A stretch of DNA of 64,000 nucleotides from an uncultured Bacilli bacterium (GCA_944358535.1 CALVRH010000001.1:23708-87707), one strand, 5' to 3'. Numbered from the stretch's first letter, positions 2,147 through 40,927 are shown. Notes: generated by a model from the letters alone, not told the origin. Program-made: numbers and translations.

Positions 2147-3397
2147 TTAGTATTTTCCTTTGGTTTTTTTGCATATATTATTTCTTTCTATTATTAAATT
2201 TAGTATTTCGTTTATTTTTTCTTCAGTTGGATTATCCGCCGTTTTATTTAATTTTTCTAATATTGCTTCTTCACTTTCTTTTGTAAATTCAGATGATATA
2301 GGGTCTGAAAATTTGAGGGCTTCAACTAAGTCTTGATTGTTTATTTTTTTAGCTATGTTTAAAGCTTCTTCAATAAAATTTTGGATGTTATTTATTTTTT
2401 TATCATATTCTTTTAATCTATTTTTGACGAAATATAAAGGTAAGAATATGATAAAATATATGATAGTTGTAACTATAGTTATGATTAAAAGATTATTTAT
2501 ATTTAAGTAAGCATATATGTTTATAGCAAATAGATAAATGATGGATAAAATATATAAGAAAGTTATATATACTGTTTTATCTTGATTTTTCTTTTTATTT
2601 AGAATTAATATAATCAACAAGGTTATAATTAGGGCCACTAATTCTATTATAATGGCAAGATAAAAATTATTATTGATATTTTCGTCTATTATTTGATTTA
2701 TAGTTATAACAGACGAAGGAATATATATTTCGCTTGGCATTTTATCTAAATTCATAGAAATAGTGGTTACAGGAAGATTTTCAATGGTTTCTGGGATTAT
2801 AATTTGTTTTTCACTACCTTTATAACCAGTTACTTCTATTTGATTATTTTTGATGTTATAAGTGAAATTATCGTTACTTTTAAGTTCGTTTAGTTCACTA
2901 TCTGATATGTTTTGATAATTAAAATTGTTTTTTTCGGCATAGTTTTGAACATTTTGATTATTATGTGAGGTTAGTTTGATAGAGCTATTATTGATTGATT
3001 TTATATTTTCATCTATTATTTGATTTATGGTTATAACAGATGAAGGAATATATATTTCACTTGGCGCTTTATCTAAACTCATAGAAATAGTGGTTACAGG
3101 AAGATTTTCAATGGTTTCTGGTATTATTATTTGTTTTTCACTACCTTTATAACCAGTTATTTCTATTTGATTATTTTTGATATTATAAGTAAAATTATCG
3201 TTACTTTTAAGTTCGTTTAGTTCACTATCTGATATATTTTGATAATTAAAATTGTTTTTTTCGGCATAGTTTTGAACATTTTGATTATTATGTGAGGTTA
3301 GTTTAATGGAATTGTTATTAAACGGTTTATTTAGATAGGTTAGAGTTAAGAAAATGGTACTTATTAATATTATAATAACTGGAATGATTTTTTTCAT
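2147..3397 (-). CDS. Membrane protein with two near-identical 118-aa tandem repeats (BspA-like LRR fragments), 4 TM helices and a cytoplasmic coiled C-terminus
   Basis: 416-aa ORF. Repeat unit SIKLTSHNNQNVQNYAEKNNFNYQNISDSELNELKSNDNFTYNIKNNQIE[IV]TGYKGSEKQIIIPETIENLPVTTISM.LDK.PSEIYIPSSVITINQIIDENI occurs twice; the IPSSVITI segment resembles BspA-type LRRs. Start is 1 nt downstream of the SPFH gene stop. Confidence 0.5.
   Translation of the reverse strand: MKKIIPVIIILISTIFLTLTYLNKPFNNNSIKLTSHNNQNVQNYAEKNNFNYQNISDSELNELKSNDNFTYNIKNNQIEITGYKGSEKQIIIPETIENLPVTTISMSLDKAPSEIYIPSSVITINQIIDENIKSINNSSIKLTSHNNQNVQNYAEKNNFNYQNISDSELNELKSNDNFTYNIKNNQIEVTGYKGSEKQIIIPETIENLPVTTISMNLDKMPSEIYIPSSVITINQIIDENINNNFYLAIIIELVALIITLLIILILNKKKNQDKTVYITFLYILSIIYLFAINIYAYLNINNLLIITIVTTIIYFIIFLPLYFVKNRLKEYDKKINNIQNFIEEALNIAKKINNQDLVEALKFSDPISSEFTKESEEAILEKLNKTADNPTEEKINEILNLIIERNNICKKTKGKY
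2609..3316 (-). repeat. Two tandem ~354-bp near-identical direct repeats inside CDS 2147..3397
   Basis: DNA blocks ~2609-2962 and ~2963-3316 are almost identical (e.g. 'gataattaaaattgtttttttcggcatagttttgaacattttgattattatgtgaggttagttt' occurs twice), giving the two 118-aa protein repeats. Confidence 0.8.
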
Positions 3398-4553: not shown

Positions 4554-6401
4554 CTACTTTCTTTTTGGAATATATTTTGAATATGCATATTCTCCATTTT
4601 GTGATTTATATCCAGAGTATACATAACCTGTTTTGTTTGGTATATATTCTATTTTATACCAAAGACCATCTTTATTTGGACAGTTATCTATATTTTTACA
4701 TGACACTATTTCTAGTACATTATAATAATTTCCTGAAAAGATATAATCTTGTTTTTGGCTACTGCTATCTGGATTTTTTCTAACATTTATATAATCGATT
4801 GTTACTAATATTTGGTTTTCATTTGTGTTTTTTGCGCCTATATTTTTTGGTTTCATGAATACGATGAATATTAAGGTGATTGATAATACTATAGCAAGTA
4901 TATAGGCAATTATTGGCGTTTTAGTATGTGGGTTATCTTCAAAATTTTTCTTTGTTTCTTTTTGTAATTGTTTAATTTCTTCAGCGTACTGTTTTTTGAT
5001 AAGGGTTGTTTCGGCTTTTAATTGCCATTTAGAGTTCATTAATATTAGTATGATAGTGAATATGTAAATACCTAGTATAGATGAGTTAAAAGTTAAGTTA
5101 TATTCTTTATATATAAAGACTGAAAATAGTAAGAATATAAATAGATTTATAATATATAGATATTTAGATATTCTTCGGCTTTTTCGGCTACTAAAACCTA
5201 GTATATAAGCTATAAAATATATTATAGATGTCGTGCCAAAGATTATCACGAGTTGGTCAGATAATAGTTTTATATATAAAGTTGGATTGTTTGAAACAAA
5301 AACAGAATTACTAATTAATATAATATAGAAAGTGGCTACTACAGCGGAGAGTAAAAATGTGATGATGCTATAACTTTTTGGGCATTTTTCTTTGTATATT
5401 TTAACTTCTACGCCTCTTTCTTCTTCCTCTCTTTTTAATTCTTCCTGTTTTAACATTTCTTTGAATTTATTGAATAATTCATCAGATATTTCTTCGTTTT
5501 TTGGTGTTTTTTTGATTATTTTAGTAATACCTCTTATTAAATCTTGAATAGCACCTATTTTATTTAGGTCTTGTCCTTGAAGAAGAATAAATTCTTCAGG
5601 TAAGTCAGAGGCTGTCATGCCATAAAAACAAGGAATTAAGGTTTTATTTTTGTCTTTTTTCATGATGTCTAAGTAACGACTCCACTCATTTTTGACCCAA
5701 ACTGAGTTCATGTTTTTTTGAGATGTTCCAATTACCAACATTACTTTTGAGGATTTTAGTGCTGAATAGATATATGGTTCATATTCTGAGCCTATTTTAT
5801 CTTCTAGAGTAATTCTAGAGAAGAATACTTTATAGTTTAATTTAGTTAATTCGTTATATATTTCTTGGGCTATTACGGAATCTTTGGTTCGTCCACCATT
5901 TTTTTCGTCGGTTTCTTTATAACATATGAATATATCATATGGGCTTTCTTTTTCAGATATTTCTAATATTCCTTTTTGAATTCTATTAATTTCTTTAGCT
6001 TCTTTTTCATAGAGTTCTAATGTTTTACCATAAGCATTTTTTACGATATGTTTATACTCTTGAGTAGTTAAAATTGATTCTTTATTAGTTCTATGACAAG
6101 TAGGAATTTTTTTATTTGTTTTAGGGTCATCGACATATTCGACGCCGTATTTACAAAGAAGAATACCCCACTGCGCTTCTAACTGAGTGTTATCAAGATT
6201 TAATATAGATTCATATAGTCCTTGCGCTTTATCAAACTCATTAGATTGTCTTAATTCGTTTGCTCTATTATAAAGGTTGATTATTTTTTCATTATCAGAG
6301 TTTGGCAAGGTCATAGTACTTTTACAGTATAGACATTTACCGGTATTAGTACCTTTAATTGGCTCAATATCGCCGCCACACATTTTACATTTAAAGGTCA
6401 T
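4554..6401 (-). CDS. TIR-domain membrane protein (Zn-ribbon - TPR-like - TIR - 5 TM - SH3b)
   Basis: 615 aa. N-term CKMCGG...CLYCKS zinc ribbon. TIR core YDIFICYKETD...KVFFSRITLEDKIGSEYEPYIYSALKSSKVMLVIGTSQKNMNSVWVKNEWSRYL (DIFISY-like beta-A strand, SxWxxxE catalytic-type glutamate). Five hydrophobic helices. C-terminal SH3b-like ...INVRKNPDSSS...WYKIEY...GYVYSGY. Confidence 0.75.
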   Translation of the reverse strand: MTFKCKMCGGDIEPIKGTNTGKCLYCKSTMTLPNSDNEKIINLYNRANELRQSNEFDKAQGLYESILNLDNTQLEAQWGILLCKYGVEYVDDPKTNKKIPTCHRTNKESILTTQEYKHIVKNAYGKTLELYEKEAKEINRIQKGILEISEKESPYDIFICYKETDEKNGGRTKDSVIAQEIYNELTKLNYKVFFSRITLEDKIGSEYEPYIYSALKSSKVMLVIGTSQKNMNSVWVKNEWSRYLDIMKKDKNKTLIPCFYGMTASDLPEEFILLQGQDLNKIGAIQDLIRGITKIIKKTPKNEEISDELFNKFKEMLKQEELKREEEERGVEVKIYKEKCPKSYSIITFLLSAVVATFYIILISNSVFVSNNPTLYIKLLSDQLVIIFGTTSIIYFIAYILGFSSRKSRRISKYLYIINLFIFLLFSVFIYKEYNLTFNSSILGIYIFTIILILMNSKWQLKAETTLIKKQYAEEIKQLQKETKKNFEDNPHTKTPIIAYILAIVLSITLIFIVFMKPKNIGAKNTNENQILVTIDYINVRKNPDSSSQKQDYIFSGNYYNVLEIVSCKNIDNCPNKDGLWYKIEYIPNKTGYVYSGYKSQNGEYAYSKYIPKRK

Positions 6402-6505: not shown

Positions 6506-8350
6506 TTATTTTTTTTCTAATTTTTTAACATATTCATTGTTATCTCCACTATATACATACCCTATTACTCCTTTGCCAGTTTTAATTTTATACCAATAAG
6601 TACTATAATCGTCATATTCGTCTTCTTCGATGGCTTCTAATATTGTATATATTTCACCTTTTTTTACTTCGCCTAAAATATGAGTATTATTATATGTATT
6701 AGTTTCTTGTCTAATTCTAAGGTATTCTGTAATTATTTCTATTTGCTCTTTAGTATCATCGCGTTTATTTGTTTGTTCATTATTTAATGATGTGGCTGTT
6801 TTTATGATAAATAACAAGATGGTTATTATAACAATTATGAGTATTATTTTTTTTCCTTTAGTTTTTTCTTTTGTTTTAAAATTTTCCTTAATATATTTAT
6901 TTTTCTTTAACTGGTTATCTTTTTCTTCGGTAGTCATTATCGATTTAGTACTAGAGTTTAATGTCCAAGATGGATTTAATAATGAAGATATAACTTGAAC
7001 TATAATTATAAAACTATTTATAAGTATTAATTCAAAATTGCCTATCACAATGTTTTCGACGGCTCTAAAATTTTTGTCAGCGAAGTTATCAACGACAGCA
7101 CAAAAAACGTTATTAAACTGTAATATTAATAAAGCTATAGAGAGCGCTGTGAGCAAACTTTTATATTTATATGTTTTTCTTTTGAAGCAAAATATAAATG
7201 ATAAAATAAAGAATATTAAAGATAAGATTATTAATATATAGCTGGATAGTTCAGTATAGTTAATGTCTAACAGTAATAGATAACAAATGCTAGCTATAAA
7301 AATTATTCCTACTTGAATTAAATAGTACCATATTGGAAGATTTTCTTTTAATATAGTAACTTCATATTTACCATTTCCTAAGTTTTTGGCTTCGTCTAAA
7401 ACATTTTGAACTTTAGCAATGGTTTCTTTATCTATGCCTTCAATGTCGTCTACTTTAGTTTCTTCAATTATTTTTTTAACGCCTCTTGTTAAATCTTGCA
7501 TGGCGCCAACTTTATCCATTGATTGAGCTTGAAGCATGGCAAATTCTTCCGGAAGTTTATAGGCGTCTATTTTACTATATACGGGTATTAAAACTTTTGA
7601 TTTGTCCTGATGCATCATTTCTAAAAATCTATTCCACTCGTTTTTGACCCATACAGCACTAAAGTTTTCTTCGCTGGTTCCAACTACGAGCATTACTTTT
7701 GATGTTTTTAAAGCTGAGTAGATATATGGTTCATATTCTTTTCCAAGTTTATTTTCTAAGGTTATTTTAGAGAAAAACACTTTAAATCCAAGATTTGTTA
7801 GTTTATCATAGATATCTTCGGCAATGACAGAGTCATGGGTACGATTTCCTTGTTTATCGGTTTCTTTATAACAAATGAAAACATCATAAGGCTTTTCTTT
7901 TGAAGAAATTGATAGAATATTTTTTTGAATTTCATCGATTTGTTTAGCTTCTTTTTCGTAAAGTTTTAGAGCATCACCATACGAATTTTTTTTGATATAT
8001 TTAAAATCATTATCTAGTAAGATTGAGTAGTCATTTGTTCTATGACATGTTGGTATTTTTTTATTTGTTTTTGGGTCGTCGACGTATTCGACGCCGTATT
8101 TACAAAGAAGGATACCCCAGTGAGCTTCTGTTTGAGTGTTATCTATTTTTAATATGGTTTCATATATTTCTCTTGATTTATCAAATTCATTATTTAATCT
8201 TAAGTCATTGGCTCTATTATATAGGTTTAATATTCTTTCATTATCGATATTAGGCAAGGTCATTATACTTTTACAGTATAGACATTTACCGGTATTAGTG
8301 CCTTTAATTGGCTCGATATCGCCACCACACATTTTACATTTAAAGGTCAT
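6506..8350 (-). CDS. TIR-domain membrane protein, paralog of 4554..6401
   Basis: 614 aa with the same architecture. First ~100 aa ~75% identical (MTFKCKMCGGDIEPIKGTNTGKCLYCKS...). TIR core YDVFICYKETDKQGNRTHDSVIAEDIY...SAVWVKNEWNRFL. C-terminal SH3b ...WYKIKTGKGVIGYVYSGD. Its 5' leader is near-identical to that of the other copy. Confidence 0.75.
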   Translation of the reverse strand: MTFKCKMCGGDIEPIKGTNTGKCLYCKSIMTLPNIDNERILNLYNRANDLRLNNEFDKSREIYETILKIDNTQTEAHWGILLCKYGVEYVDDPKTNKKIPTCHRTNDYSILLDNDFKYIKKNSYGDALKLYEKEAKQIDEIQKNILSISSKEKPYDVFICYKETDKQGNRTHDSVIAEDIYDKLTNLGFKVFFSKITLENKLGKEYEPYIYSALKTSKVMLVVGTSEENFSAVWVKNEWNRFLEMMHQDKSKVLIPVYSKIDAYKLPEEFAMLQAQSMDKVGAMQDLTRGVKKIIEETKVDDIEGIDKETIAKVQNVLDEAKNLGNGKYEVTILKENLPIWYYLIQVGIIFIASICYLLLLDINYTELSSYILIILSLIFFILSFIFCFKRKTYKYKSLLTALSIALLILQFNNVFCAVVDNFADKNFRAVENIVIGNFELILINSFIIIVQVISSLLNPSWTLNSSTKSIMTTEEKDNQLKKNKYIKENFKTKEKTKGKKIILIIVIITILLFIIKTATSLNNEQTNKRDDTKEQIEIITEYLRIRQETNTYNNTHILGEVKKGEIYTILEAIEEDEYDDYSTYWYKIKTGKGVIGYVYSGDNNEYVKKLEKK

Positions 8351-36138: not shown

Positions 36139-36807
36139 TTATTTAAATTTCTTTTTGATTTTTAAAACTTTATTTTGCAAAGCTATATTTTCGCTGTTTA
36201 ATATAAGCGGTAGAACTTGCCCTTCTAGAATATCAAATATGCTTAGTTGAGCAGAATTTTCTTCATATAATTTTACATTTTTTAAAGAGTAAAATAAAGA
36301 ATTGACGGACAAAAGTAAGTTATATTCTTTATCATAATACCATTTAATTGGAATTACTGGGCGAAATTTATCGTTAAAAAGAACATATCTTTTATTATCT
36401 GATTCAAATTCTAGTCCCATTTTCGTTTCACCAATTGGGTAACTTCTGCCTGTAAAAGATAAATTTATGGGGTTATTTAATTGGGTAGTATTAGAACTAT
36501 ACCAGCTTCCAAATTCGATTATGAGAATTCCTTGTTCATTTACATAGTAATTACTATTTTGAATTATATTGGACATATTTTTTGCTTTTATTAATGGCCT
36601 TACTCCACTATTACTATCTACATTTTTAGCCATTATATTTCCAAATATATTAACATTAAGTACTGAACTTTTGTTATCAGAAGTCCAATAATCTGTTAAA
36701 TCATTATTTAAATCTTTGCATTTAATACCTATTTTTTTAATTAATTTAGAGTTTTTTAAATATTCGGTTGATGGTAAAGATATTTTAAAATCTTCTTTGT
36801 TATACAT
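36139..36807 (-). CDS. Hypothetical protein, 'ITLPS-EYL / DYWTS / GVRP' paralog family (member B1)
   Basis: 222 aa. Shares with B2 and B3 the N-terminal E[IV][ST]LPS.EYL..S.LI.KIG, DYWTSD, GVRPLIKA and WYYDKEYNLLLSVNSLF motifs. Confidence 0.45.
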   Translation of the reverse strand: MYNKEDFKISLPSTEYLKNSKLIKKIGIKCKDLNNDLTDYWTSDNKSSVLNVNIFGNIMAKNVDSNSGVRPLIKAKNMSNIIQNSNYYVNEQGILIIEFGSWYSSNTTQLNNPINLSFTGRSYPIGETKMGLEFESDNKRYVLFNDKFRPVIPIKWYYDKEYNLLLSVNSLFYSLKNVKLYEENSAQLSIFDILEGQVLPLILNSENIALQNKVLKIKKKFK

Positions 36808-36827
36808 AAGTACTTCCTTTCAAATTA

Positions 36828-37616
36828 TTATTTTAAAATTTTTATTTTTTGATTAGATATTTCTTGGATTTCATTTAATCTTTTAATATTTTCTTTGAGT
36901 TTTTCATTTTCTTCTAGTAATTCATTTATTTTAGCAATTAAATCATTTGTTGGATATGAATTTTCTTGGTTAATATTTTCTAATAGGCATGAGAGAAATT
37001 CATTATTTAAGCTTTTATATAAACTAGTAGTTTTAAAATCTCCTAAAAATGGATTTTTCTCATCAGATAAAGTTGAATTAAATAAAGTGTGTTCTGATAA
37101 TAATAGGTTATTTTCTTCATCATAATACCAGTTAATGGGCACTACTTTATGAATTTCAGTATTTGTTATAGCAAATACTCCGTTAATAGTGTTTATTTCA
37201 AAACCGATTTCCTTTTGATTTGCTTTAAAGCATTTGTTTTTAAATAAAAATGAAGGTTCTAAATTAGCAATTTTTACAGAATTTGGAGTATACCATTTGC
37301 CAAGTTCTATCATAATAAAACCCTTTTTATATGTTTTAAAAGGACTGGATTTAACAATATCTTCTAGATTAGCAGCTTGGATGATTGGTCTTACACTGTA
37401 TGTTTCACCGGCTTTTGTATGACAAAATTGCCCGTCAGATGACATTCTAAATTGATATGAGCAATCATTATTAATATATGAATAAGAACTAGTCCAATAA
37501 TCCGTTTCTTTATTATCTAAGTTTTTTCCTATATATCCAATTTTTCTTATGAGGGATGATTTTTCTAAATATTCTTTTGATGGTAATGTTATTTCGATAT
37601 CTTCTTTATTTATCAT
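36828..37616 (-). CDS. Hypothetical protein, same paralog family (member B2) with C-terminal coiled coil
   Basis: 262 aa: ...ITLPSKEYLEKSSLIRKIGY..., DYWTSS, SVRPIIQA, NWYYDEENNLLLSEHTLF, ending in heptad-rich LLEENEKLKENIKRLNEIQEISNQKIKILK. Confidence 0.45.
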   Translation of the reverse strand: MINKEDIEITLPSKEYLEKSSLIRKIGYIGKNLDNKETDYWTSSYSYINNDCSYQFRMSSDGQFCHTKAGETYSVRPIIQAANLEDIVKSSPFKTYKKGFIMIELGKWYTPNSVKIANLEPSFLFKNKCFKANQKEIGFEINTINGVFAITNTEIHKVVPINWYYDEENNLLLSEHTLFNSTLSDEKNPFLGDFKTTSLYKSLNNEFLSCLLENINQENSYPTNDLIAKINELLEENEKLKENIKRLNEIQEISNQKIKILK

Positions 37617-37631
37617 ATTTTCACTTCTTTC

Positions 37632-38162
37632 TTAGTTTATCAACAAATCAGTAATTATATTGGCGGCATCACTACTAAAATCTTTTATTTTATAAAGCGT
37701 GTCTTTGAAAAAATGATTTTTTGTGTTTTTGTTATTTATTTTCATGATAAAGTTATCGTTATCTTTAGTTATTTTGATATCATTTGTATATCTTTGATAT
37801 TTTTGTTTTAGATTTTCTAAATCGTTTTTATTTCCATATATATATAAGGTATCTTTATTTAAGTAAATACTATTTGGAATGAATGATCTATAAAATTGTT
37901 TTATTGTGTCATAGTTAACAATTATATTATCTAGGGATTTTTTTTTGAAATATTTTTTTATTTTTTTTATGTTTATTTTTTTGTTTTTACCACGTTTGGT
38001 GATGCTGAATTTTTTCCCCGTTAAGCTTATATTATTTAACAAATAGCAGGTATTAATATTATTATTTTGTTCAATTGCATCGAGAAATGTATTATCATTT
38101 AGACCAATACCTAGTAGCGATCCTTTTAAATTATTAATTATTTCTAATATTTGTTTATTCAT
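37632..38162 (-). CDS. Hypothetical protein (8-nt overlap, likely translationally coupled, with upstream ThiF-family gene)
   Basis: 176 aa, N/K-rich, no recognisable motif. Start codon overlaps the stop region of the 38155..38832 gene. Confidence 0.35.
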   Translation of the reverse strand: MNKQILEIINNLKGSLLGIGLNDNTFLDAIEQNNNINTCYLLNNISLTGKKFSITKRGKNKKINIKKIKKYFKKKSLDNIIVNYDTIKQFYRSFIPNSIYLNKDTLYIYGNKNDLENLKQKYQRYTNDIKITKDNDNFIMKINNKNTKNHFFKDTLYKIKDFSSDAANIITDLLIN

Positions 38163-38832
38163 GTTTTTCCTCCAGTAGTTTATTTATAACATAACTTGCC
38201 GCTATTAAACCAGCAGTTGCTGGAACAAATGCATTTGAACCAATTTTACCTTTGACTAATGGTTTTTCTTTGGAAAATATAACAGGAATATTTCCTTTAA
38301 TTTTTTCATCTTTAACCATTTTCCTAATTATTTTAGCAATGGGGTCATATTCGGTTTTTCTAATATCGTCTATTTTTAATAATTCGGGATGCATTTTATT
38401 ACCTGTTCCCATTACTGAGACAAAAGGTATTTTCTCGTTTAAACATTTTTTGATAATTAATTTTTTAGTATCAATGGTATCAATTGCATCAATAACAAAG
38501 TCTATTTTTATATTGAAAAGACTATCAATATTTTCTTTATTCAAAAATAGTTTTATATCTTTAATTTTACAATTGGGATTTATATTTTGAGCCATTTTTT
38601 TAGCAACTTCGACTTTTGATTTACCAATAGTTTCTTTATATGCAAGGGCTTGCCTATTTAAATTTGTTATTTCTATTATATCACAATCTATAACGATAAT
38701 ATTTTCAATACCACTTCTAACTAAAGCTTCAAAGGCGTGTCCACCTACTCCACCTAAACCAATTACCATTATGGTTTTATTTTTTAAAGTGTCTATTTTG
38801 TTTCCTATTAAAATTTTTAAACGGTCGAACAT
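38155..38832 (-). CDS. ThiF/MoeB-family E1-like enzyme, TcdA (tRNA threonylcarbamoyladenosine dehydratase)-like
   Basis: 225 aa. Rossmann GLGGVGG nucleotide-binding motif, ...NLNRQ... and overall size/shape of TcdA/YrvM-type stand-alone E1-fold proteins. No C-terminal rhodanese or Cys-rich extension. Confidence 0.55.
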   Translation of the reverse strand: MFDRLKILIGNKIDTLKNKTIMVIGLGGVGGHAFEALVRSGIENIIVIDCDIIEITNLNRQALAYKETIGKSKVEVAKKMAQNINPNCKIKDIKLFLNKENIDSLFNIKIDFVIDAIDTIDTKKLIIKKCLNEKIPFVSVMGTGNKMHPELLKIDDIRKTEYDPIAKIIRKMVKDEKIKGNIPVIFSKEKPLVKGKIGSNAFVPATAGLIAASYVINKLLEEKHE

Positions 38833-38881
38833 TTTACCACCTATTTATGATTATACTATATTTTTTCAGAAGAAAAAAGCT

Positions 38882-39898
38882 TTAAGATTGGATTTTGTAA
38901 CCATTTCTTAAAACTTTTGTTTTGGCTTTTTTATCTATTTCACTAAAATGTGCCGATTGAAAATGAGTTAATGTATCGATAGCGCTTTCATCAATAGTAA
39001 TGCAGGCTATACGTCCTGAGTTTTGATATGAAAGTTTCCATTTGTTTTCTGGTAATATTTCATTTAAAGCTTCTGCATAGTTTATTTTTATTTTTTTAGG
39101 GTCTAAATATTCATTGGTACAGAAATTATAAATATGACCATTAATACTTGCAATAAAATTAGCGGTAATAGCATCTTTTTTTATTTCTGTGTTCCAATAT
39201 GCGTCTAAGTCTTTCTTAGCCAATTTTTTGAAATTGTTTATGAATTCTACTTTTGTTATGCTATCTGGTAATTTTAATTCTTCACTATCAATCATGCTTT
39301 CTAGTATTTTAGCTGATGTGTTTATTCCTTCATAAGTAATATCAATTAAGTTTTGGCTTTTTTGATAGCCATTTGAAACTTGGATATTGATATTTTCTAA
39401 AATTGCTAAGAAAATATTAGTACCGTTTATGTCTTTTAAGTTTTTTTGATTTAAGTAATTTATTTTTTTAAATTTATGGGTTATATAACCATTTTTTAAA
39501 ATCTGTTCTTCTGCATTTTCTTCAATTTTTCCTTTATAAAATTCTTCGAAGTTTTCAACTAAATAAGATTTATAATCATCAATATCAACGGTTATTATAT
39601 CATGGCTTACAATATAAACTAGTCTCCAAATTGAATTTGGCATAATGTCAGAAAAGGCTCTAGCAAATAAAATTTCAGAATTATCATTTATAAATTTATG
39701 GGTATTAAAGTTATATATGCGCCCATCAATAGCACTAAGACAGCTAAGAGTAGTTTGATTATTTTCTTTTAAAAATGCTAAAAATAAATTATCGCCATTT
39801 AAATTTTCTAAATCTTTTGCATTTAAACGATCAATGTTATCATATAAGTAGTCAGCGTCACCAATATTAAAATATTCATTTTTCATAATAAATTTCAT
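38882..39898 (-). CDS. Hypothetical protein with internal duplication
   Basis: ORF to 39937. Likely start MKFIMKNEYF... Two related halves (...DLENLNGDNLFLAFLKENN...IDGRIYNFNTHKFI... and ...NLKDINGTNIFLAILENIN...INGHIYNFCTNEYL...). No known domain recognised. Confidence 0.35.
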   Translation of the reverse strand: MKFIMKNEYFNIGDADYLYDNIDRLNAKDLENLNGDNLFLAFLKENNQTTLSCLSAIDGRIYNFNTHKFINDNSEILFARAFSDIMPNSIWRLVYIVSHDIITVDIDDYKSYLVENFEEFYKGKIEENAEEQILKNGYITHKFKKINYLNQKNLKDINGTNIFLAILENINIQVSNGYQKSQNLIDITYEGINTSAKILESMIDSEELKLPDSITKVEFINNFKKLAKKDLDAYWNTEIKKDAITANFIASINGHIYNFCTNEYLDPKKIKINYAEALNEILPENKWKLSYQNSGRIACITIDESAIDTLTHFQSAHFSEIDKKAKTKVLRNGYKIQS

Positions 39899-40018
39899 TC
39901 CTTTTACTTTGTTCAAGGCACACATAGTCATGAACAATATAATTATTTTTCATACTATTTTCCTTTACAAGTTAATGATAACATGTTTATAGAAAAAAAT
40001 CTAGAATAATTTCTAGAT

Positions 40019-40927
40019 TTACAAATGTAATGTTTTTTGATGACCGTGATTTTGTATATCTAGAACAATTTTATCTATCTCATCATTTAATTTTTTATTT
40101 TGTAATCTTAATGCTTCATTTTCTTTAGTCAGTTCTTTTAATTTTTCAAGTAATTCTTTTTTTCTTTGGATATCAGGTTTTAAACTCTCATTTTCTGATA
40201 TTATTGTTTGCATATAATTTTCATCCTCTGAAATGTTTATTTTTGAAATTTCTTTATCAGTGATATCTACATTAATGAGAAGATCTTTTATAAATTCCTT
40301 ATTCAAAAAACGATATAACTGAGAATTTTTGAAATCATTATCATAATCGTTATTATATTCAGAATCTTTGACGTTTATTGGTGATTCAAATAAGACGCCT
40401 ACAGATATTAACATATTATTTTCCCTATCAACATAAAACTTAGCTGGTTTTAATGGATAATAACAACCTCGCAATTTAATAATCTCTTGATTGTTATAAA
40501 TATATGTTTGACAGTTATACCACTGAAATATATTTGACTTATCAATCATAGATATAGCAGGAATATGATATCTATAGTACTGGGGTTTAAAAGTGTGAGA
40601 ATAATCAACATTTAATTTTTTGCTTAAATCAGGATATGTTCCAAGTTCTATAATTTGAATGCCATTTTTAAATTTTCTTGGACAATTTTTAATTAATTCG
40701 TATAGACTATCTGTTTTTAAAACAGGGCGTACACCACAGTTATAATGTATTTGATGATAGTGTATATACCCAAAAATATCAACCACTCCGGCAAAATCTT
40801 TTAAAATTGTATCACTTGTCCAATAAATTTTTTTACATCCTGGTCCGATTTTTTGTAAGACTTTAGATTTTTCTTCTATTTCTTCTCTTGATAATAAAGT
40901 TACTTCTATATTAGGTTTTTCACTCAT
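40019..40927 (-). CDS. Hypothetical protein, same paralog family (member B3) with C-terminal coiled coil
   Basis: 302 aa: ...IEVTLLSREEIEEKSKVLQKIGP..., KIYWTSD, GVRPVLKTD, C-terminal ...KKELLEKLKELTKENEALRLQNKKLNDEIDKIV. Confidence 0.45.
   Translation of the reverse strand: MSEKPNIEVTLLSREEIEEKSKVLQKIGPGCKKIYWTSDTILKDFAGVVDIFGYIHYHQIHYNCGVRPVLKTDSLYELIKNCPRKFKNGIQIIELGTYPDLSKKLNVDYSHTFKPQYYRYHIPAISMIDKSNIFQWYNCQTYIYNNQEIIKLRGCYYPLKPAKFYVDRENNMLISVGVLFESPINVKDSEYNNDYDNDFKNSQLYRFLNKEFIKDLLINVDITDKEISKINISEDENYMQTIISENESLKPDIQRKKELLEKLKELTKENEALRLQNKKLNDEIDKIVLDIQNHGHQKTLHL

Follow-up and report, generated by a model that had tools for sequence, protein, structure and literature searches.

Results

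The gene block between LemA/DUF2207 and murC

We analyzed a block of six genes in a 64,000-nucleotide (nt) stretch of DNA from an uncultured Bacilli bacterium (GCA_944358535.1, CALVRH010000001.1:23708-87707). This entire stretch is referred to as the window, and positions are counted from its first letter. The block (36139-40927) consists of six open reading frames (ORFs) on the minus strand and is flanked by LemA/DUF2207 and by MurC, exactly as laid out in the original prediction, which had been made from the sequence alone. There, the block was regarded as an uncharacterized cluster in which three paralogs and a 351-residue orphan accompany a translationally coupled pair, a ThiF-family E1-fold protein and a 176-residue protein, and it was proposed that the E1-fold enzyme might belong to an adenylation-dependent modification system. 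We refer to the gene of the E1-fold protein as tcdA, to its downstream neighbor as u176, to the paralogs as parA222, parB262 and parC302 and to the orphan as u351. Our analysis centers on the tcdA-u176 pair, which is the part of the block that related genomes retain.

Among the six proteins, only the ThiF protein had a significant Pfam match (PF00899, 7.8e-41), and scans of all six against PADLOC and PHROG returned generic E1 matches for this protein only. A hydrophobic segment resembling a signal peptide or a membrane helix was found in none of the six. The block region contains no Rfam family and no tRNA. A promoter scan was uninformative, with 67 promoter-like sites compared to 65 expected, and so was a terminator scan, which returned 0. 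The genes tcdA, u176, parB262 and parA222 follow each other closely, with gaps of -8, 15 and 20 nt. Their shared orientation carries no weight for operon membership, because nearly all ORFs in the window with 150 residues or more (44 of 46) lie on the minus strand. Identical or near-identical copies of the locus are present on gut metagenome contigs.

The E1-fold protein resembles TcdA

The first gene of the pair, tcdA (38155-38832, minus strand), encodes an E1-fold protein of 225 residues. Its best NCBIfam model was TcdA (PRK15116, 137.7 bits), followed by ThiF (PRK08644, 107.9 bits). The best solved relative in a phmmer search was likewise TcdA, namely the E. coli protein (4d7a, E 5e-33, 118 bits), ahead of MoeB (66 bits) and ThiF (47 bits). 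Curated models and solved structures thus agree with the original prediction that stand-alone TcdA is the nearest relative. Identity to E. coli TcdA is about 42% over 161 residues, a value counted by hand on the alignment and not reported by the tool.

A check for TcdA-specific residues led to the same assignment. The phmmer alignment to 4d7a places G25-L-G27-G28-V-G30 at the P-loop (GxGGxG), and residues T56, N57, R60, Q61, K73 and D118 correspond to T68, N69, R72, Q73, K85 and D130 of the E. coli enzyme, most of which contact ATP (PMC4405576). When the window protein was aligned with 53 orthologues (54 sequences in total, one 185-residue copy being excluded), the P-loop as well as T56, N57, R60, K73 and D118 were at least 95% conserved. 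Its only cysteines are C50, C88 and C130, none of which is part of a CxxC pair. The protein therefore lacks the Cys4 zinc motif known from MoeB and ThiF, as TcdA does, and beyond residue 140 the 54-sequence alignment contains no conserved cysteine at all.

The P-loop, the ATP-contact residues and the lack of a Cys4 zinc site are shared with TcdA/CsdL (E. coli ygdL and its B. subtilis orthologue), and the alignment extends past the Rossmann fold into the TcdA-specific region. It reaches residue 188 of the E. coli protein and resumes at residues 238-262, the segment between being about 29 residues shorter in the window protein. The window protein has 225 compared to 268 residues and differs from E. 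coli TcdA in missing the disordered basic loop that carries Cys220 and Cys234, in which the tRNA-facing residues 214-236 lie. Equivalents of both cysteines are absent, and the shortened 189-237 segment has none of its own. Cys234 is missing from the yeast Tcd proteins, too (PMC13139853). The u176-linked TcdA orthologues (n=54) span 221-233 residues, with the single exception of the 185-residue copy. A further difference concerns the genetic context, since the window tcdA is followed by a dedicated gene with which it is coupled, whereas the E. coli gene lies in the csdA-csdE neighborhood. From these sequence features, we treat the ThiF protein as a putative TcdA-type dehydratase, which would convert tRNA N6-threonylcarbamoyladenosine at position 37 (t6A37) to its cyclic form (ct6A).

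TcdA-like genes also circulate in phage-labelled records, since eight INPHARED records, e.g. Staphylococcus phage SA 1306 Kay, encode proteins with 32-42% identity to the window protein. Furthermore, the PHROG family phrog_37075, whose function is not known, matches it over its full length (E 5.7e-69).

u176 has a predicted methyltransferase-like fold

The second gene of the pair, u176 (37632-38162, minus strand), encodes a basic protein of 176 residues with a pI of 9.7, which is also the approximate value for the family. The stop codon of tcdA and the start codon of u176 share 8 nt, and a GGAGG sequence lies 7 nt 5' of the ATG, in line with the translational coupling that had been proposed for the two genes. 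Searches with u176 in Pfam, NCBIfam, PADLOC and PHROG gave no match, and 48 relatives compared with Pfam at E<=5 did not reveal any consistent match either. Grouped at 90% identity, the family comprises 117 clusters, and a search of 1.8 billion proteins gave 356 representatives at 50% identity. Its members are stand-alone proteins of about 165-182 residues that are labelled hypothetical at NCBI, and no cultured host is among their sources. One relative (P0294, 254 residues) joins ~125 N-terminal u176-like residues to a PHP domain (PF02811, 1.3e-15). Rather than being a genuine fusion, this protein probably arose as a chimera during assembly or gene calling.

The AlphaFold2 model of u176 (mean predicted local distance difference, pLDDT, 85.8; predicted template modeling score, pTM, 0.81) shows a Rossmann-like alpha/beta fold of seven strands that includes a beta6-beta7 hairpin. 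A Foldseek search of this model against the PDB returned 142 matches at E<=1e-3, and the top 50 shown all have the class-I S-adenosylmethionine (SAM)-methyltransferase fold. Spermidine synthase, Bud23, METTL5, TrmK, KsgA and MnmM were among the neighbors, with a best E of about 3e-6 and a template modeling (TM) score of about 0.6. With the small RNA methyltransferases of this list (Bud23, METTL5, TrmK, KsgA and MnmM; Foldseek E 3e-6 to 7e-5, TM about 0.55-0.63), u176 shares the predicted fold, the beta6-beta7 hairpin and a size of about 175 residues. The identity to them is only 9-18%, however, and there is no match at the profile level. In u176, all that is left of motif I is G-x-x-x-G-I-G, in which a single loop glycine is invariant, a disordered lysine-rich insert that carries a net charge of +13 over residues 43-80 takes the place of helix B, and a long C-terminal helix is present. 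A kinship of u176 with the MTS-type methyltransferase encoded in the same window was tried and rejected, as hhalign returned a probability of 0.75% and no similarity.

Within the u176 family, conservation is highest in the loops that follow beta-1, beta-3, beta-4 and beta-5 at their C-terminal ends. In this fold, these loops form the site of the ligand pocket, and such a pocket may hence persist in u176. Judged by its sequence, u176 may be either a pseudo-enzyme or an active non-canonical methyltransferase.

The tcdA-u176 pair is conserved in related genomes

To compare neighborhoods, we used 69 species-level loci that were gathered through u176 and onto which the window genes were mapped. These loci stem from metagenome-assembled genomes (MAGs) of uncultured gut Bacilli (Firmicutes bacterium CAG:822, Candidatus Coprosoma, Candidatus Faecisoma and bins labelled 'Mollicutes/Tenericutes'), and the set of relatives includes closed chromosomes of 1.3-1.5 Mb. 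The group would correspond to the RFN20-type lineage, whose genomes are reduced. TcdA is encoded directly upstream of u176 in 54 of the 69 loci, with gaps ranging from -29 to +5 nt, and an identical 8-nt overlap of the two genes occurs in 29 of these 54. The context of the pair varies, with locations between murC and secE, in front of SMC and at further sites, which indicates that tcdA and u176 move as a unit. The locus of one genome is reduced to murC-tcdA-u176-secE and contains nothing else (L058). Even a remote member of the u176 family (P0288, locus L088) is preceded by an overlapping TcdA gene. We also started from the other side with a TcdA-profile-seeded metagenome scan. Here, u176 lay downstream in 13 of 80 TcdA loci, at a distance of -17 to +16 nt, and all 13 belong to the closest relatives. 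The more distant TcdA genes, equally short ones among them, are followed by unrelated housekeeping genes (e.g. cyclophilin, MsrA and the peptidyl-tRNA hydrolase Pth).

Two Mollicutes MAGs have no TcdA next to u176, and the place directly upstream is taken by a gene for a PP-loop ATPase of 277 residues (L081:755-1588 and L082:2405-3238). The protein carries an SGGKDS motif, matches PF01171 at 3.8e-18 and is of the TilS/TtcA tRNA-modification type.

Two further observations concern the neighbors of the pair. A conserved orphan of about 162-182 residues without a Pfam match lies between u176 and secE in locus L015 (8546-9055). The same orphan follows u176 in L036, L037, L039, L042, L043 and L045, and all these loci, L015 included, belong to the clade without adjacent TcdA. 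It is recognizable by the motifs YINWLE.Y and YKIGY and shows 34-50% identity between species. In two other loci (L029:8852-9328 and L041:8842-9327), a YbaK/ProX-type aminoacyl-tRNA editing-domain protein (PF04073, 3.5e-23) is encoded between murC and tcdA.

The remaining four genes are variable insertions

The idea of a six-gene unit did not survive the comparison of the 69 loci, in which only tcdA and u176 stay together. The paralogs were found in 12 and u351 in 7 of the 69 species loci, and LemA/DUF2207 also occurs in a subset only, while the pair persists. The paralogs, u351 and LemA/DUF2207 are variable insertions in the slot that extends from murC to secE, and a link to TcdA is not demonstrable for any of them. 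Polymorphism was scored on ten strain contigs of 98.9-100% identity, and the counts are small. Since these contigs had been selected by their identical TcdA protein, TcdA itself is outside this scoring. In u176, we counted 16 synonymous versus 4 non-synonymous sites, and the gene is under purifying selection. Non-synonymous changes were more common in parB262 (7 synonymous versus 9 non-synonymous) and in u351 (7 versus 14) than in u176. In one strain contig of the window's own species (L003:6768-7674), the parC302 orthologue is broken up into three ORFs (41, 136 and 64 residues) and is likely a pseudogene, and tcdA-u176 is intact there.

The three paralogs are encoded on the minus strand by parA222 (36139-36807, 222 residues), parB262 (36828-37616, 262 residues) and parC302 (40019-40927, 302 residues). 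That they are related to each other, as had been noticed in the original prediction, is borne out by pairwise BLASTP comparisons (E = 2e-38, 5e-22 and 6e-19; 31-36% identity), with parC302 being the most divergent. The sequence motifs said to be common to all three are indeed there but not without deviations. The 262-residue protein has SVRP in place of GVRP, and the 302-residue protein carries only the degenerate forms VTLLSREEI, IYWTS and FYVDRENNMLIS. The coiled-coil C-termini assigned to two of the proteins were recovered as heptad-rich tails in the 262- and 302-residue proteins. These tails (residues about 224-259 and 251-288, respectively) weakly match leucine-zipper/DivIC-type models. 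A long coiled coil is not part of the 222-residue protein.

The family could be connected to DUF6273 (PF19789), which was matched by 13 of 23 family members at E<0.01, with a best E of 3.3e-7. Three members exceed the gathering score of 23.5 bits (24.4, 26.5 and 30.8 bits). Of the window copies, parC302 reaches 19.1 bits (E 1.3e-3, residues 187-221 versus profile positions 20-55), and parA222 and parB262 have no match. The order of the matching parts is permuted. Residues of about 23-85, containing the N-terminal YWTS...GVRP, correspond to profile positions 117-168, and residues of about 165-225, containing the later W.YD.E.NLLLS...LN.EF, to positions 2-62. Judged by these profile matches, the three paralogs probably represent DUF6273 domains in circularly permuted form, for which a C-type-lectin-like fold would be expected. 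With the DUF6273 domains of phage tentaclins and of targets of diversity-generating retroelements (DGRs), they have the motifs L.S.EE, YWT/WW..S, GVRP, W..D.E.N.LLS and LN.EF in common. They differ from these by the permutation and by the lack of a signal peptide, an immunoglobulin-like domain and, within the window, a DGR, with a C-terminal coiled coil instead. A partial ORF located 5' of u176 in another locus (L050:3-680) contains the motifs in the collinear, non-permuted arrangement (SASEYL...WWTISP...VFPVLYLK), suggesting that DUF6273-like domains may be common in the lineage.

The gene u351 occupies 38882-39886 on the minus strand, with an ORF that extends to 39937. Translation probably begins at the ATG at 39886, because public gene calls use this codon and homologues begin with MK.EYFNI, which results in a protein of 334 and not 351 residues. 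The internal duplication that had been described for the 351-residue ORF was confirmed, as the two halves align over about 90 residues with 30% identity (E = 4e-14). Relatives of u351 form 50 clusters, all with at least 45% identity, and are confined to close relatives. None of the clusters contains a Pfam domain, except for one apparent fusion of 550 residues (PF13393 and PF03129). The AlphaFold2 model (pLDDT 87.4, pTM 0.53) shows two repeated beta-rich modules with a long helical hairpin between them. The repeats are modeled with confidence, but the arrangement of the domains is uncertain. A fold search gave no significant match (best E 0.14 in the PDB and 0.056 among the predicted viral structures of BFVD), only insignificant PH-like hints. 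Profiles built for the families of u176, of u351 and of the paralogs were also compared with the sequences of solved structures and yielded nothing meaningful.

Taken together, the four accessory genes most likely encode soluble ligand-binding proteins under relaxed or diversifying selection, and the paralogs might oligomerize through their coiled coil.

Repeats were also observed elsewhere in the window. Two adjacent minus-strand ORFs of 615 and 614 residues (4554-6401 and 6506-8350) are tandem paralogs that contain the direct repeats D2/D3 (71-78% nt identity, 1.95-kb spacing). At 2673-3299, a 300-nt direct repeat with 95% identity and a spacing of 327 nt lies within a 416-residue ORF (2147-3397) and represents a near-perfect internal duplication inside a coding region.

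Discussion

The E1-fold enzyme at this locus had been seen as a TcdA-like protein coupled to a 176-residue partner, and this part of the original prediction stands. Its extension to an adenylation-dependent unit of six genes does not, since the ThiF protein groups with TcdA and the paralogs, by the profile matches of their family, fall into an unrelated family, DUF6273. The six-gene block is an ordinary adjacency in a variable slot. We therefore favor, with moderate confidence, a composite block in which tcdA and u176 form a housekeeping bicistron with a tRNA-directed partnership and the other four genes are variable insertions.

A scheme for such a partnership starts from TcdA, an ATP-dependent E1-fold enzyme that would act on ANN-decoding tRNAs and cyclize their t6A37 to ct6A. 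The u176 protein would likely be made together with TcdA by translational coupling, via the overlap with the tcdA stop codon, and would act on the same tRNA substrates. It could do so as a non-canonical methyltransferase that modifies the anticodon loop, or else as a subunit that is catalytically dead but binds RNA and assists TcdA in recognizing tRNA. We infer from the sequence data that TcdA and u176 may be physical partners, that u176 may bind RNA and that the short TcdA would have ct6A activity. We consider a functional partnership on tRNA most likely because of the conserved overlap, the probable RNA-binding character of u176 and the PP-loop gene in front of u176 in two MAGs.

The situation in yeast favors a partnership as well, because the Tcd enzymes depend there on an inactive enzyme-fold domain. 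Yeast Tcd enzymes contain a catalytically inactive HNH-like C-terminal domain that is needed for tRNA binding and ct6A formation, and lineage-specific tRNA-recognition modules thus have a precedent in Tcd enzymes (PMC13139853). The comparison with the domain of Tcd1/Tcd2 is an analogy only. Like this domain, u176 is a positively charged enzyme-fold module that is tied to a Tcd enzyme. Unlike it, u176 has a predicted class-I methyltransferase fold and not an HNH fold, is a separate polypeptide that is not fused to the enzyme and occurs also without adjacent TcdA.

Several observations speak against the proposed partnership or against a catalytic role of u176 in it. The TcdA-like protein stays below the equivalog cut-off of NCBIfam PRK15116 (137.7 versus 304 bits). 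Motif I of u176 is degenerate, reading GSLLGIGLND instead of (E/D)xGxGxG with only G14 and G20 being invariant, and the position after beta-2 is N, S, E, D, K or T in the family and hence not a conserved acid. Methyl transfer by u176 is therefore hypothetical. Moreover, comparisons with PDB sequences, Pfam and hhalign did not detect any sequence relation of u176 to a methyltransferase family, and TcdA-u176 fusion proteins were not seen among the clusters of the u176 family. In 15 of the 69 loci, u176 is present without a TcdA within 10 kb, which means that it may act independently of TcdA. Finally, equally short TcdAs (223-235 residues) occur without u176 downstream. This last point also weakens a more specific idea, namely that u176 stands in for the missing tRNA-binding loop of the short TcdA.

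The strongest competing explanation is that u176 is an independent methyltransferase for tRNA or rRNA, or an independent RNA-binding protein, and shares an operon with tcdA because both are housekeeping genes of translation, with no physical or pathway link between the two. The 15 loci without adjacent TcdA fit this well, in particular one clade in which u176 lies directly between murC and secE-nusG. So does the fact that TcdA genes outside the lineage adjoin assorted housekeeping genes, and the concentration of the best-conserved positions in the loops after beta-1, -3, -4 and -5 is what a ligand pocket would lead one to expect. On the other hand, the overlap of stop and start codon has been kept in several contexts at only 29-45% identity of the u176 proteins, and this exceeds what is usual for passive operon membership. 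The degenerate SAM-binding motifs are likewise not in favor of an autonomous methyltransferase. We thus regard independence of u176 from TcdA as possible but rather unlikely.

The accessory genes might also have a mobile origin, with the paralogs and u351 being remnants of a mobile or phage cassette, or DGR targets, that landed beside tcdA. This is suggested by DUF6273 itself, which is reported to have a C-type-lectin-like fold and to serve as a DGR-diversified receptor-binding module in gut phages (PMC10743442; bioRxiv 10.1101/2024.10.15.618418), by the hypervariability of the slot between species, by the elevated non-synonymous polymorphism and by the GC content of the block, which is slightly lower (0.23-0.26) than that of the flanks (about 0.28-0.33). 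However, the 64-kb window contains neither a template/variable repeat pair nor a reverse-transcriptase-sized repeat partner, and the sole repeats of the block reflect the paralogy of parA222 and parB262 (72-75% nt identity). The polymorphisms on the ten strain contigs are scattered and not concentrated in the YWTS...GVRP region. A tblastn search found no homologue in 50,697 phage records, and a phage origin was rejected for u176 and parB262. No integrase, transposase or reverse-transcriptase domain appeared in the Pfam calls of the block and its flanks, which were inspected without a dedicated scan. A cassette or DGR origin therefore seems improbable to us.

It is even less plausible, to the point of being highly improbable, that the whole block works as a single adenylation-dependent system for modification or conjugation, with the E1 enzyme activating a metabolite or one of the unknown proteins: the tight spacing of tcdA-u176-parB262-parA222 and matches of the ThiF domain to defense-type E1-E2 profiles (E about 1e-17, via the generic Rossmann part only) would fit, but the gene set is not kept as a unit across loci, the enzyme has TcdA-type residues and no conserved catalytic cysteine in its C-terminal part, the paralogs are assigned to DUF6273 and one of them is apparently pseudogenized in a strain that retains the pair, a beta-grasp/ubiquitin-like substrate, an E2, a JAB or a defense partner was not detected among the five neighbors with Pfam, NCBIfam, PADLOC and PHROG, and neither u176 nor u351 is predicted to have a beta-grasp fold.

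Returning to the composite block with a tcdA-u176 bicistron at its core, no new biology is needed for the six-gene cluster as such, which is explained by a housekeeping tRNA-modification gene located in a slot of variable content. With the paralogs comes a probable permuted and apparently cytoplasmic form of DUF6273, a domain that is otherwise known from phage receptor-binding proteins. A useful by-product of the analysis, and a modest new lead, is an unannotated protein family that is genetically tied to TcdA. More speculatively, the short TcdA and u176 could constitute a two-protein enzyme of this gut Bacilli lineage, in which u176 contributes tRNA recognition or the addition of a methyl group and which makes ct6A or an undescribed derivative of t6A/ct6A at position 37 of the tRNA. 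We put this forward as a tentative proposal, and somewhat doubtful at present. If true, u176 would be the founding member of a new family of tRNA-modification proteins. TcdA enzymes rely on helpers, a role played by CsdA/CsdE in E. coli and by an additional domain in yeast. If bacteria have a partner protein dedicated to TcdA, this would bear on how TcdA recognizes tRNA and on why such helpers are needed.

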